Below are positions 1-5,862 of a stretch of 5,882 nucleotides of DNA, piece by piece. Origin of the DNA: a virus. Its lineage: Duplodnaviria; Heunggongvirae; Uroviricota; Caudoviricetes. A program made the position numbers and the translations under genes. The notes below the pieces were generated by a model. It saw only the letters and a program-made list of their open reading frames with translations, was not told the origin of the DNA and did not search any database. The DNA is taken from positions 1 to 5,882 of the IMG/VR virus record IMGVR_UViG_3300029521_000128; one strand, written 5' to 3'. Every line of letters begins with the position of its first letter. Positions within the stretch are counted from its first letter, which is position 1.

Positions 1-362
1 CGGGAATATCTACGGCAGCAAGCCAGTAATGGGTTAAGTGATAACAGGTGTCTGGAAATATAGGGGCAAATCCAGGTGGTTGTTGCTTTCCCGTTGCTGA
101 AAAAGAAAACGCCAGACTGTTAGCCGGGTATCAGTTATCTGGAGAAATTTTTAAATACCTCACAATTCAGGCGGTTGACTGTTGTCTGGTTTGCGGGGAG
201 TTTGTTAAAAGAAACTGGCATGGTGAATCCCCCTGTGCGGAGGGGCAATCAGCAACTGGTGTTTTGTCACCGACCCTTATCCTTTCTGTGCGGGTTCAGG
301 TGCTGATACTGAACTCACCGGGAGGCACCCGGCATCATGCAATGGCACATAGCGCCACTCTC
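1..362 (+). promoter_or_regulatory. Structured non-coding leader upstream of a tR'-like terminator; possible late-promoter (pR'/qut-proximal) transcribed region
   Basis: No ORF with an RBS. Several short hairpins (CCCCT/AGGGG near 228-244; GTTCAG/CTGAAC at 294-315; CCGGG/CCCGG at 322-336). The 9-mer ATGGGTTAA at 29-37 matches the initial transcribed sequence of lambda pR' as I recall it. Position is immediately 5' of a strong terminator and upstream of the late genes. Confidence 0.3.
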
Positions 363-398
363 CAGCCCCTCTCCGGAGGGGCTGTTTATATTGATTTT
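363..398 (+). terminator. Rho-independent terminator (tR'-like), perfect 9-bp GC-rich stem plus T-rich tail
   Basis: CAGCCCCTC (363-371), loop TCCG, GAGGGGCTG (376-384), then TTTATATTGATTTT (385-398). Confidence 0.8.
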
Positions 399-3112: not shown

Positions 3113-3295
3113 ATGACATTTATTCATCAGGTGATGCTGTACTTCTGTACGGCAGTCTGTGTTATGTATCTTCTTTCGGGTGGGTACAGGGCAGTGCGCG
3201 ATTTCTGGCGCAGGCAGATTGATAAAAGGGCCGCTGAGAGAATCAGCGCCAGTCAGTCAGCCGGAAGCAAACCCGAAGATCCGCTCATTCCGTAG
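3113..3295 (+). CDS. Hypothetical small membrane protein (60 aa), one predicted TM helix followed by a basic tail
   Basis: ORF with a hydrophobic segment VMLYFCTAVCVMYLLSGGY and a C-terminal RAVRDFWRRQIDKR region. Weak SD (GGTAAG) 5 nt upstream. Could be spurious. Confidence 0.3.
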   Translation: MTFIHQVMLYFCTAVCVMYLLSGGYRAVRDFWRRQIDKRAAERISASQSAGSKPEDPLIP

Positions 3296-3332
3296 TCACT
3301 TTCTTGACAACACCTTTCAACGAGAAAATCCC

Positions 3333-3578
3333 ATGTCAGAAATCACATCCCTGGTCACTGCTGAGGCAGTGAAGGAAGTCCTGCGCTCTGAAGAAGTCCT
3401 GAGCGCACTGAAACAGAAACTCCGCCAGAACCTTGAGTCGCGTCTTGATGCAGAAGTGGATGCCATTCTGGATGAGCTGCTGGGCGTACCAGCGGTTCCG
3501 GAGCCGGAAGGTATCGCGGGTGACGGGAGTGCTTCAGATGGCGGTGAACCCACACCTGACAGCGACATGATGATGTAA
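3333..3578 (+). CDS. Hypothetical small acidic protein (81 aa), predicted helical with an acidic Gly/Pro/Asp-rich tail
   Basis: ATG at 3333 inside the longer track ORF 3159-3578. Codon usage resembles neighbouring late genes. Weak SD (GAG about 8 nt upstream). Co-oriented with and 76 bp upstream of the holin. Confidence 0.5.
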
Positions 3579-3654
3579 GCCTGCGCAAGGGACCATCGGT
3601 GTGTGCCGGTGGTCTTTATATTGTTGTGAGCTTCCGGATAACGGGAGACGGGGT

Positions 3655-3870
3655 ATGTACCAGATGGAAAAAATCACAACAGGTGTGTCATACACCACGT
3701 CAGCGGTGGGAACGGGCTACTGGTTCCTGCAGTTGCTGGACAGGGTTTCCCCGTCTCAGTGGGCGGCAATAGGCGTGCTGGGGAGTCTGCTGTTTGGGCT
3801 GCTGACATATCTGACTAACCTGTATTTCAAAATCAGAGAGGACCGTCGTAAGGCTGCACGGGGAGAGTAA
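3655..3870 (+). CDS. S: Class II holin (pinholin), phage 21 S21-like, 71 aa with dual-start motif
   Basis: Translation [71 protein letters not shown]. Two TMDs: a weakly hydrophobic Gly/Thr/Ser-rich TMD1 (SAR-like) and a hydrophobic TMD2, then a charged C-terminus. Met1/Met4 dual start. Strong SD GGGAGACGGGG upstream. Closely resembles the S21 / Stx-phage S holins from memory. Confidence 0.9.
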
Positions 3871-3874
3871 TTCA

Positions 3875-4219
3875 ATGACTCAAAACTATGAACTGATTGT
3901 GAAAGGGATCCGCAATTTTGAGAATAAAGTTACGGTAACTTTAGCGTTACGGGACAAAAAACGCTTTGACGGTGAAATTTTTGACCTGGACATCTCGCTG
4001 GACCGTGTTGAAGGTGCCGCGCTGGAGTTTTATGAGGCAGCAGCCAGAAGGAGCATCAGACAGGTCTTCCTGGATGTTGCTGCCGGGTTATGTGAAGGGG
4101 ATGAGCAGTCGCCGGAAAAGCGCCCCGTAATTTTAGAGGCGCAGGATGTGTTGATAACCTACAGAGGAAAACTACCGGGAATAATTACGGGTTCTCTGAA
4201 GAGTCCGCCGAAATGGTAA
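3875..4219 (+). CDS. Hypothetical soluble protein (114 aa) inserted between holin and endolysin; function unknown (possibly DUF826/ydfR-like by position only)
   Basis: ATG 5 nt after the holin stop, with SD GGGAGAG (3861-3867) at about 9-nt spacing, suggesting co-transcription or coupling with S. E. coli-like codon usage. No TM segment and no recognisable catalytic motif. Confidence 0.6.
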   Translation: MTQNYELIVKGIRNFENKVTVTLALRDKKRFDGEIFDLDISLDRVEGAALEFYEAAARRSIRQVFLDVAAGLCEGDEQSPEKRPVILEAQDVLITYRGKLPGIITGSLKSPPKW

Positions 4220-4457
4220 TTTTACCAGCATATTTTTCATCCAGTAATACAGCAAGCCGCCTGAAAGAGTCTTGTTGTTCCTGAGACCATTTGGGATTGC
4301 ATGATTCAAACTGGATTGATGCCAGCGTTGATTGCATCTGTTCCCTTGGAATTGAGAATGCCAGATATGAGAAGGCGACGGTAAGGGTATTCACGTCTTC
4401 CCGAAGCCTGGAAATGCTGTCGAGCAACTCCTGTAGAGAAATGGTGTTATTGTCCAT
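4185..4457 (-). CDS. Hypothetical protein (90 aa) on the opposite strand, convergent with the 114-aa ORF and overlapping it by 35 bp; function unknown
   Basis: Intact - strand ORF. On the coding strand AGGA lies 7 nt upstream of ATG (...CATGAGGATTATTT ATG GAC AAT...). Candidate -10 TACAAT further upstream. Predicted mostly helical, no TM. Contains some rare codons (AGG, CTA). Confidence 0.5.
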   Translation of the reverse strand: MDNNTISLQELLDSISRLREDVNTLTVAFSYLAFSIPREQMQSTLASIQFESCNPKWSQEQQDSFRRLAVLLDEKYAGKITISADSSENP

Positions 4458-4562
4458 AAATAATCCTCATGATTGTATTGACCTGTTAGCAGCCTGAGGC
4501 AACAGGCTGGAACTGATAAACATATCCAGGGCTCAGAAACCGATAAATCCTGATAAATATCC
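4458..4562. promoter_or_regulatory. Divergent intergenic region between the - strand 90-aa ORF and the endolysin, with direct and inverted repeats; candidate promoter/operator region
   Basis: Near-identical direct repeats CTGATAAACATATCC (4512-4526) and CTGATAAATATCC (4549-4561), plus a third GATAAA at 4542-4547. Inverted repeat CCTGTT (4483-4488) ... AACAGG (4501-4506). For the - strand gene a -10-like TACAAT (complement of 4473-4478); the only -35-like hexamer (TTGCCT) sits 19 nt away, so the promoter is weak or uncertain. Confidence 0.3.
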
Positions 4563-5096
4563 ATGAACGCAAAAATCAGATACGGCCTGTCGGCTGCCGT
4601 TCTGGCGCTGATTGCCGCTGGTGCGCCTGCGCCTGACATTCTCGACCAGTTTCTGGATGAAAAGGAAGGTAACCACACCACGGCATACCGTGATGGCGCG
4701 GGTATCTGGACCATCTGCCGCGGTGCCATCCTGGTGGATGGCAAACCTGTCGTTCCGGGCATGAAGTTGTCGAAGGAAAAATGCGACCGGGTTAACGCCA
4801 TTGAGCGTGATAAGGCGCTGGCATGGGTGGAGAAAAACATCAGAGTGCCATTGAGTGAACCCCAGAAAGCGGGGATCGCGTCATTCTGTCCGTACAACAT
4901 TGGTCCCGGTAAGTGTTTCCCGTCGACGTTTTATAAACGAATTAATGCAGGTGATCGCAGGGGAGCGTGTGAGGCGATTCGCTGGTGGATTAAGGACGGT
5001 GGCAGAGACTGCCGTATCCGCTCAAATAACTGTTATGGTCAGGTATCCCGTCGTGACCAGGAGAGCGCGCTGGCGTGCTGGGGAATCGACAGATAA
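4563..5096 (+). CDS. R: SAR endolysin (signal-anchor-release lysozyme, T4-lysozyme/GH24-like muramidase), R21/Stx-phage R type
   Basis: 177 aa. N-terminal Gly/Ala-rich weakly hydrophobic SAR domain GLSAAVLALIAAGAPAP. Catalytic E-x8-D-x5-T triad in EGNHTTAYRDGAGIWT. C-terminal half (NIGPGKCFPSTFYKRINAGD...WWIKDGG) is typical of lambdoid SAR lysozymes. Confidence 0.92.
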   Translation: MNAKIRYGLSAAVLALIAAGAPAPDILDQFLDEKEGNHTTAYRDGAGIWTICRGAILVDGKPVVPGMKLSKEKCDRVNAIERDKALAWVEKNIRVPLSEPQKAGIASFCPYNIGPGKCFPSTFYKRINAGDRRGACEAIRWWIKDGGRDCRIRSNNCYGQVSRRDQESALACWGIDR

Positions 5097-5185
5097 GCAG
5101 AATATTTTGCTGAAAAATAAGGCATGGCCACGCGGGCGGATAACATGAAATCCTGCGAACTGGCGAAACGTAAGTGAATAAAAGT

Positions 5186-5225
5186 AAAAACCCCGTTTGT
5201 TGGCACCAAGCGGGGTTTTGTGTTT
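5186..5225 (+). terminator. Rho-independent terminator between endolysin and Rz (A-tract, 9-bp stem, U-tract)
   Basis: AAAAA (5186-5190), stem CCCCGTTTG (5191-5199) / CAAGCGGGG (5207-5215) with one G-U pair, loop TTGGCAC, then TTTTGTGTTT (5216-5225). Confidence 0.7.
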
Positions 5226-5255
5226 CCTGACTCCGGAAAAGTCAAAGGAGAAAGT

Positions 5256-5393
5256 GTGTTTGATTTTAGCAAACTGATTCGGGAGATTCGAGTGATGGCT
5301 GAAAAATTATCCACCTGGAAGTTCATTCTTATCTGGCTGGTGTTTGTGATTATGGCCTCCGGTTATTTCATCGGTCAGATACGCTGGTGGTGA
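5256..5393 (+). CDS. Candidate small single-pass membrane peptide (45 aa from GTG 5256; 32 aa if from ATG 5295), stop 1 nt before the Rz start
   Basis: SD AAGGAG (5245-5250) 5 nt before GTG 5256. Translation (V/M)[44 protein letters not shown] has an amphipathic N-terminus and one hydrophobic helix. TGA at 5391-5393, Rz ATG at 5395. Below the ORF-track size cutoff, so absent from the supplied track. Confidence 0.35.
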
Positions 5394-5394
5394 A

Positions 5395-5862
5395 ATGAAC
5401 CGCGTACTGTGCGTGGTCATCATTGCCCTGCTGGTGGCCTGTGGTGCGCTTAGTCTGGGGCTGAATCATTACCGTGATAACGCCATTACCTACAAAGCCC
5501 AGCGCGACAAAAATGTCAGAGAACTGAAGCTGGCGAACGCGGCAATTACTGACATGCAGATGCGTCAGCGTGATGTTGCTGCGCTCGATGCAAAATACAC
5601 GAAGGAGTTAGCTGATGCGAAAGCTGAAAATGAAACTCTTCGCGCTGACGTTGCCGCTGGTCGTAAGCGCCTGCGTATCAACGCCACCTGTCCAGGTCCC
5701 GTGCGTGAAGCCACCGGCACCGCCCGCGTGGATAATGCAACCGGCCCCCAACTGGCAGACACCGTTACACGGGATTATTTCACCCTCAGAGAGCGGCTGA
5801 TGACGATGCAGAAGCAACTGGAAGGGGCGCAGGAATATATCCGTACTCAGTGCCTGAAATAA
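5395..5862 (+). CDS. Rz: Rz i-spanin (inner-membrane spanin subunit), lambda Rz-like
   Basis: 155 aa. N-terminal TM helix [20 protein letters not shown] followed by a coiled-coil periplasmic domain. Long stretches ([65 protein letters not shown]) match lambda Rz as recalled. Confidence 0.92.
5615..5800 (+). CDS. Rz1: Rz1 o-spanin (outer-membrane lipoprotein spanin subunit), embedded in the +1 frame of Rz
   Basis: 61 aa. Signal peptide with lipobox LVVSAC (Cys20). Pro-rich mature region [32 protein letters not shown], very similar to lambda Rz1. SD GAAGGAG (5601-5607) 7 nt upstream. Lies entirely inside Rz in a different frame. Confidence 0.9.

Follow-up and report, generated by a model that had tools for sequence, protein, structure and literature searches.

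The stretch of DNA studied here, 5,882 nucleotides of IMG/VR virus record IMGVR_UViG_3300029521_000128 (referred to below, at its full length, as the window), is the late region of an Escherichia coli lambdoid prophage, in which the holin gene S and the endolysin gene R of the lysis cassette are separated by a gap of 692 bp. S (3655-3870, plus strand, stop codon TAA at 3868-3870) codes for a 71-amino-acid (aa) class II holin of the S21 type (pinholin) with the dual-start motif M1...M4; it matches the Pfam family Phage_holin_2_1 (9e-33) and is labelled 'class II holin family protein' in RefSeq. R (4563-5096, plus strand) encodes a signal-anchor-release (SAR) endolysin of 177 aa (Pfam Phage_lysozyme, 1.3e-23; RefSeq 'lysozyme'), and the spanin genes Rz/Rz1 lie at 5395-5862. 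The gap holds two open reading frames (ORFs), both annotated by RefSeq. The first, ydfR (3875-4219, plus strand, 114 aa), has its ATG at the fifth base past the stop codon of S, with GGAG upstream. The second, which we call gene X (4185-4457, minus strand, 90 aa, WP_000369850.1), runs in the opposite direction, so that the 3' ends of the two genes overlap by 35 bp (4185-4219). A spacer of 105 bp (4458-4562) separates the start of X from that of R, and its R-proximal part (approximately 4503-4562) is common to cassettes without X in our alignments. The architecture described in the original prediction, with its holin-coupled start, Shine-Dalgarno (SD) sequences, overlap and spacer, is thus confirmed in the sequence. 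The region 3600-4700 is 100% identical to NZ_CM185152, and at least 80% of it is held in 1045 records (1044 genomes). Pinholin of the S21 type, SAR endolysin and Rz/Rz1 spanins are the same components as in the S-R-Rz cassettes of phage 21 and lambda. In phage 21 and lambda S and R are adjacent, whereas ydfR intervenes in the window and in most S21-type prophage cassettes of E. coli, and X in about a quarter of them.

The 114-aa protein is a member of the YdfR/DUF1327 family (PF07041), with a score of 145.2 bits against a cut-off of 25 (7e-43) and coverage of residues 1-111. It also matches phrog_406 (4e-68) and carries the RefSeq name 'YdfR family protein'. The original prediction saw no assignable motif in either protein of the gap, which holds for X (no match in Pfam, NCBIfam or PADLOC) but not for the 114-aa protein. 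DUF826, which had been proposed as a family to check, belongs to a separate ORF upstream of S. Two parts can be distinguished in YdfR. The N-terminal domain (residues 1-72; 3875-4090, plus strand) is homologous to YdfR of the K-12 Qin prophage (P76160) and has a predicted beta-beta-beta-alpha fold, modelled by AlphaFold2 (AF2) with a predicted local distance difference test (pLDDT) of 60-84 and weakly matching double-stranded RNA-binding domains and phiKZ Dip. The tail (residues 73-114; 4091-4219, plus strand) ends in ...ITGSLKSPPKW, the last two codons and the stop (4211-4219) being supplied by the insertion described below. The protein is soluble and acidic, with a maximum 19-residue Kyte-Doolittle hydropathy of 0.69.

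K-12 YdfR occupies the same place in Qin, after an S21-type holin gene and before a lysozyme gene (essQ-ydfR-rrrQ), and is 81% identical to the window protein over residues 1-74. It is 103 aa long and its tail is unrelated from about residue 72, in contrast to the 114-aa protein of the window. At the DNA level, the homology between the window and Qin extends over S and the first ~70 codons of ydfR, breaks at about 4080 and resumes 13 bp before the start of R. The stop codon of ydfR in Qin overlaps the start of rrrQ and there is no reverse gene, whereas the window has X. The order holin-ydfR-lysozyme is common to the window, K-12 Qin, EDL933, an O145 strain and BL21. Of 5426 complete E. coli genomes, 3649 have the sequence of the N-terminal domain, with 4907 places in total; 101 phage records have it as well, among them BP-4795 and many converting phages of the Stx1a, Stx2c and Stx2a types. 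Given this distribution and the gene order in K-12 Qin, ydfR is a regular late gene and part of the backbone of S21-type lysis cassettes, not an insertion or cargo. It shares the late promoter with S, R and Rz, and its translation is probably coupled to that of S. DUF1327 is mentioned once, and incidentally, in the literature that we searched. Binding of K-12 YdfR to the N-terminal catalytic half of RNase E has been reported from bacterial two-hybrid assay and pull-down/co-purification; residues 1-72 are enough for this binding, and RNA co-purifies with the protein (PMC13232886, 2026). Extended from the K-12 orthologue to the window allele, these data suggest that YdfR would act late in infection on host or phage RNA turnover rather than on the cell envelope.

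In contrast to ydfR, gene X is carried by a discrete insertion. Relative to cassettes of the EDL933/O145 type, the alignment delimits an insertion of 292 bp (4211-4502) that starts directly past the codons for ...ITGSLK(S/T)PP. It is absent, with both flanks conserved, from EDL933, the O145 strain and 14EC020, where 50-63 bp, and no reverse gene, separate R from a ydfR that codes for 114-116 aa and has the same tail. The G+C content of the insertion is 0.43 versus 0.53 in S, 0.55 in R and 0.52 in the ydfR tail (0.53-0.55 overall for S, R and Rz). Discrete presence or absence and a deviating G+C content, two of the features expected of a moron beside a promoter and a terminator of its own, are both seen here. 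Accordingly, the proposal that the gap contains an accessory module applies to X, as a discrete indel of low G+C content in reverse orientation, and not to ydfR, which usually fills the gap in S21-type cassettes of E. coli. The insertion is present in 1207 of the 5426 E. coli genomes (1338 places) as two allele classes, of at least 99% and of 80-90% identity, and accompanies about a quarter of ydfR copies; in BL21 it is located in the Rac region.

The position directly after the YdfR tail is a recombination hot spot. Among relatives, the endings that follow the PP junction vary (LA, ESQP or EF before the stop codon), and a 64-aa in-frame extension at the same junction gives rise to YdfR forms of 176 and 183 aa. 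Between ydfR alleles, dS reaches 1.7 in the N-terminal domain versus 0.05-0.2 in the tail. Very divergent N-terminal domains joined to a nearly identical tail are the mark of a recombination joint that the alleles share. Another reverse ORF has been found in the slot after ydfR, namely a 79-aa ORF (WP_001168526.1, phrog_21218) present in E. coli CUVET21-PYO5 (locus L016, 1295-1845) and in phage Perceval. Its convergent neighbour is a YdfR of 104 aa with a tail ending in ...YTIKINSSDNSITGC (...ITGC), which resembles the tails of the Citrobacter partners of X described below. We considered this ORF as a diverged X and rejected the idea (hhalign probability 0.1%, 0 bits with the hidden Markov model). 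In phage phiSTEC1575-Stx2k (locus L014, 1285-3303), no SAR lysozyme comes after the S21-type holin, ydfR and X; its place is taken by an unrelated second holin pair together with an M15 metallopeptidase, which indicates that X stays with ydfR and not with R.

Could the minus-strand ORF be an antisense artefact without a product? The lack of a called promoter and the frameshifts in some alleles (P0049, P0051 and P0061) would be compatible with this. However, pairwise dN/dS in the minus-strand frame of ten alleles is 0.08-0.41, as expected under purifying selection, and the homologues in E. coli, Shigella, E. albertii and Citrobacter keep the length of 90 aa at 58-88% identity. X matches the uncharacterised family phrog_2411 over its full length (residues 1-90 of 90, 1.1e-58). 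A profile word-search returned 239 homologues, all of about 90 aa and all from Enterobacterales, in genera that include Serratia, Erwinia, Pantoea, Winslowiella, Mixta, Sodalis, Klebsiella, Atlantibacter and Brenneria, and the Atlantibacter homologue itself matches phrog_2411 at 2.5e-17. Only 21 members of the family came out of an exhaustive comparison of the profile with 1.8 billion representatives, and only two loci out of a profile search of genome contigs with the X alignment. Taking the dN/dS values, the conserved length and the 239 homologues, stand-alone genes among them, together, X is by sequence comparison a real, selectively maintained gene. The possibility of an artefact, which the original prediction had left open should the ORF turn out not to be conserved, is effectively refuted by the comparative data in spite of the three frameshifted alleles.

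With a pI of 4.5, X is acidic, and hydrophobic segments are absent (maximum 19-residue Kyte-Doolittle hydropathy of 0.75). Its AF2 model contains four predicted helices with a mean pLDDT of 67. The profile of X gave nothing at E < 0.8 against the sequences of the PDB, and the fold search was uninformative. When 32 diverse members of the family were compared with Pfam, the matches were scattered and due to chance. A relationship to 'Mip' was dismissed, the match being 15 residues long (E = 0.037). We found no paper on the gene under the name Ybl58 or under the RefSeq accessions. We suggest that X would be a small, acidic, cytoplasmic four-helix protein acting through protein-protein contacts.

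Several members of the family are encoded away from prophages. In Serratia odorifera and Winslowiella the homologue is chromosomal and monocistronic, in the order pyrC-dinI-X-bssS-solA; this position between dinI and bssS (5001-5285 in loci L017 and L020-L022) is fixed, and the chromosomal homologues located there have their own terminators. LexA control of X was considered and rejected, as there is no CTG-N10-CAG box 5' of X in the window. For the chromosomal genes it was rejected because the box in Serratia and Winslowiella belongs to dinI, which has its own terminator. The protein searches returned only prophage- and plasmid-type homologues from E. coli and none from the chromosomal dinI-bssS clade. 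The plasmid type is represented by an 89-aa paralogue, 'Ybl58' (e.g. WP_000976359.1), which is 58% identical to X in a protein alignment and 62% in a local BLASTP comparison. It is carried by 75 E. coli plasmids, most of them conjugative and most from livestock, and on F-type plasmids it stands alone, just downstream of an AIDA-type autotransporter gene and its heptosyltransferase gene (locus L026, 6007-6261; locus L012, 2971-3240).

Upstream of X, a ribosome-binding site GAGGA (4464-4468, minus strand) is located 6 nt before the ATG and a hexamer TACAAT (4472-4477, minus strand) abuts it; this arrangement is conserved in the BL21 and Stx2k alleles. An inverted repeat, CAGCCTG-N6-CAGGCTG (4490-4509), lies at the right edge of the insertion and is present in the centroid fold of the region, which as a whole is not significant. 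Hairpins of unrelated sequence are found at the same place 5' of X in Citrobacter, in the unassigned contig L007 and in Atlantibacter. Neither the hairpin at 4490-4509 nor a candidate minus-strand terminator at 4120-4143 was accepted as an RNA element, the folding energies relative to shuffled sequences being z = -0.75 and -1.0, respectively. The promoter scan called a single minus-strand site in the interval, at 4157-4130, which is within ydfR and downstream of X. A further explanation bears on these signals, namely that the insertion acts mainly as RNA: transcription of the minus strand through ydfR and S would damp leaky expression of the holin in the lysogen, as paQ and oop do in lambda, and the protein would be secondary. 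The convergent orientation fits, and a transcript that meets no convincing terminator after X would enter ydfR and S. Against this, the protein is under purifying selection, the stand-alone homologues oppose no gene, no promoter has been mapped and no RNA structure is significant, so we regard a primarily RNA-level role as improbable.

The overlap itself does not look conserved. In the AF2 model of X the helices are confident up to residue 77, and the pLDDT is below 50 for residues 80-89; the folded part of X is therefore encoded within the insertion, and the last ~8 residues result from read-through into the antisense strand of the ydfR tail until a stop codon is reached. The overlap between X and its partner measures 35, 20, 14 or 7 nt depending on the lineage, and such variation is unlike a conserved device. 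We consider the 35-bp overlap incidental, a disordered C-terminus reading on into ydfR antisense.

What recurs is the pairing. Every prophage copy of X faces, tail-to-tail, an ORF whose end carries the motif ...ITGSLKxPP. This ORF is of the 114-aa YdfR type, or a remnant of it, at about 95 prophage or viral loci, and in more distant lineages, including Citrobacter and Atlantibacter at other positions of the late operon, the convergent partner closes with the same motif. In the unassigned contig L007 the partner has 61 aa and ends in ...RIIGSLITPPEL before the stop. In C. freundii it has 63 aa, ends in ...KITGSLRAPIKL and lies upstream of the holin gene, and a 238-aa partner in C. meridianamericanus has the same ending. 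In Atlantibacter hermannii a partner of 71 aa, ending in ...QIFGDLKKPPSY, is situated between the tail genes M and L. A search for the YdfR N-terminal domain in the 238-aa Citrobacter partner gave no support (BLASTP E = 0.73, no DUF1327 match). The codons of the tail motif, most of which are situated outside the overlap, differ synonymously, so that it is the tail peptide that is under constraint. Thus, the tail-to-tail pairing pointed out in the original prediction recurs beyond Escherichia. It is not obligatory, however: X and ydfR are each common without the other, about three quarters of ydfR copies lacking X, and in loci L009-L011 X is retained beside a ydfR cut down to a tail remnant. 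The recurrent pairing hints at a functional link between X and the YdfR tail, through tail binding or through mutual antisense interference. In the most far-reaching version, X and the ...ITGSLKxPP tail (carried by YdfR in E. coli and by small coiled-coil ORFs in Citrobacter and Atlantibacter) would form a mobile, convergent two-gene cassette in which X, expressed in the lysogen, binds the tail of a late protein targeting RNase E or RNA. We put this forward as a long shot.

The same pairing can be read as a toxin/immunity, abortive-infection or anti-phage module, in which X made by the lysogen neutralises or senses late proteins bearing the tail. Several observations are in line with this. The pairing of X with ...I-x-G-S/D-L-x-x-P is kept across Escherichia, Citrobacter and Atlantibacter at three positions of the late operon, both partners are constrained at the protein level, and the slot is a hot spot for cargo. 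Such cargo does enter the region, since a ParDE pair is found just 3' of R in L009-L011. However, neither protein has a match among PADLOC-DB families (0 at E <= 1) or in Pfam and NCBIfam, apart from DUF1327 in YdfR, and the genes are not obligately linked, with X occurring alone on plasmids and chromosomes and persisting in L009-L011 despite the degraded ydfR. In addition, no toxicity was reported for over-expressed K-12 YdfR, the tail of which is different (PMC13232886). The ideas of a toxin/immunity pair and of anti-phage cargo raised in the original prediction thus find no backing in these searches, and we consider a module of this kind unlikely.

Location within the lysis cassette also invites the explanation that YdfR, X or both regulate the timing of lysis by modulating the pinholin or the SAR endolysin. 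Consistent with this, ydfR starts 5 nt past the stop codon of S, and cassettes with X lose the start/stop overlap between ydfR and R known from K-12 and gain an untranslated gap of 343 nt. A screen cited in PMC13232886 ties ydfR to envelope integrity. However, both proteins are soluble and acidic and lack the hydrophobic segment expected of an antiholin or a membrane anchor, neither matches a family that would suggest such a role, and an antiholin is already supplied by the dual start of S. Pairs of X with a tail ORF also occur among tail genes (Atlantibacter) and 5' of the holin gene (Citrobacter), and the chromosomal and plasmid homologues of X are far from lysis genes. Furthermore, phages 21 and lambda lyse their hosts without ydfR and X. 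The lysis-timing role suggested in the original prediction is therefore doubtful.

The reading that we favour, with a probability of roughly 0.6, is that the S-R gap consists of ydfR, a standard late gene whose product probably acts on RNase E or RNA, and of a moron, X, inserted in reverse orientation at the joint after the YdfR tail. The closest known counterpart of X is the lambda bor/iss moron, likewise a small accessory gene directed against the late operon beside the lysis cassette and present or absent among collinear prophages; in locus L016, for example, iss lies on the minus strand after Rz. The bor gene is in reverse orientation and is expressed in the lysogen. By analogy and from its orientation, X would also be transcribed in the direction opposite to the late operon and, in the lysogen, most likely from a promoter of its own. 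The likeness does not extend to the products, since Bor/Iss is an outer-membrane lipoprotein with a signal peptide, whereas X is a soluble, acidic, helical protein. Moreover, unlike bor/iss, X is placed between S and R and overlaps ydfR.

Several points weigh against the reading of ydfR as an RNase E-related late gene and X as a lysogen-expressed moron. X was predicted to be independently driven, and an SD sequence and a -10-like hexamer of its own are indeed present, but the consensus scan called no sigma-70 promoter upstream of X. As the TACAAT hexamer abuts the SD sequence, a transcript starting from it would lack the latter. No convincing terminator was found after X, either by consensus scan or by folding against shuffled sequence, and the literature yielded no expression data for the gene. 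X has no detectable similarity to characterised families or solved structures (Pfam, NCBIfam, PADLOC, PDB and fold search), and its molecular activity is a guess. The partner ORFs outside Escherichia lack a DUF1327 match and have only the C-terminal motif in common with YdfR. As for YdfR itself, over-expression of the K-12 protein altered few transcripts (PMC13232886), and its tail differs from that of the window protein, so a role through RNase E could be a weak one or could fail to carry over to the window allele.

Other parts of the window were also annotated. Upstream of S are a SASA-type esterase gene (1000-2976) and, between it and the holin gene, a DUF1378 ORF and the DUF826 ORF (the latter within 3159-3578), followed by a terminator-like hairpin of 13 pairs (3588-3617, plus strand) about 40 nt 5' of the holin start, within the late operon. 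A sequence resembling a LexA box, CTGTATTACATGTCAG (CTG-N10-CAG, 960-975), is located 25 nt 5' of the first ATG of the esterase ORF and may be due to chance. Further upstream, in the region downstream of Q and 5' of the esterase gene, there is a full-length match to the Rfam small RNA family STnc100 (189-393, plus strand; 133.5 bits, gathering score 47). Between this match and the esterase gene lies an AT-rich stretch (450-1000, G+C content 0.31-0.34), with a 111-aa ORF on the minus strand (419-754) without a Pfam match. ARAGORN detected no tRNA genes in the window; in the 100%-matching record L001, three are situated at the corresponding place. The interval between R and Rz (5097-5394, 298 bp) is interrupted as well, by a strong terminator-like hairpin of 13 pairs (5187-5219) followed by a 57-aa ORF (5220-5393; phrog_6632, unknown function). 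Elsewhere this slot holds a ParD/ParE pair and a Rha-domain protein (L009-L011) or small hypothetical ORFs (EDL933).

Overall, an 'interrupted' lysis cassette is the norm for S21-type prophages of E. coli and gives no ground for flagging the window as unusual; the arrangement is fairly ordinary for prophages and does not constitute a new kind of system. Already known are the public annotation of both genes, the S-ydfR-R order of K-12 and the presence of the pair in more than 1000 sequenced genomes. What is new is modest: the delimitation of the insertion, the recognition of X as a gene under selection and as an Enterobacterales-wide family with dinI-adjacent members, and the conserved pairing with a YdfR-type tail. 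The two genes are nevertheless widespread. A holin-coupled gene that has only recently been tied to RNase E, ydfR is present in two thirds of complete E. coli genomes, and X represents a small-protein family without a Pfam entry that about a fifth of E. coli genomes carry, BL21 among them, and that also occurs on F-type plasmids; in Serratia and the Erwinia group its members are chromosomal genes beside dinI. The pairing of X with the tail offers a concrete route to assigning a function to both genes. If X does bind the tail of the late protein, the two would make up a type of prophage module not described before, one that senses the late proteins of related phages and in this way controls RNA decay or keeps such phages out.

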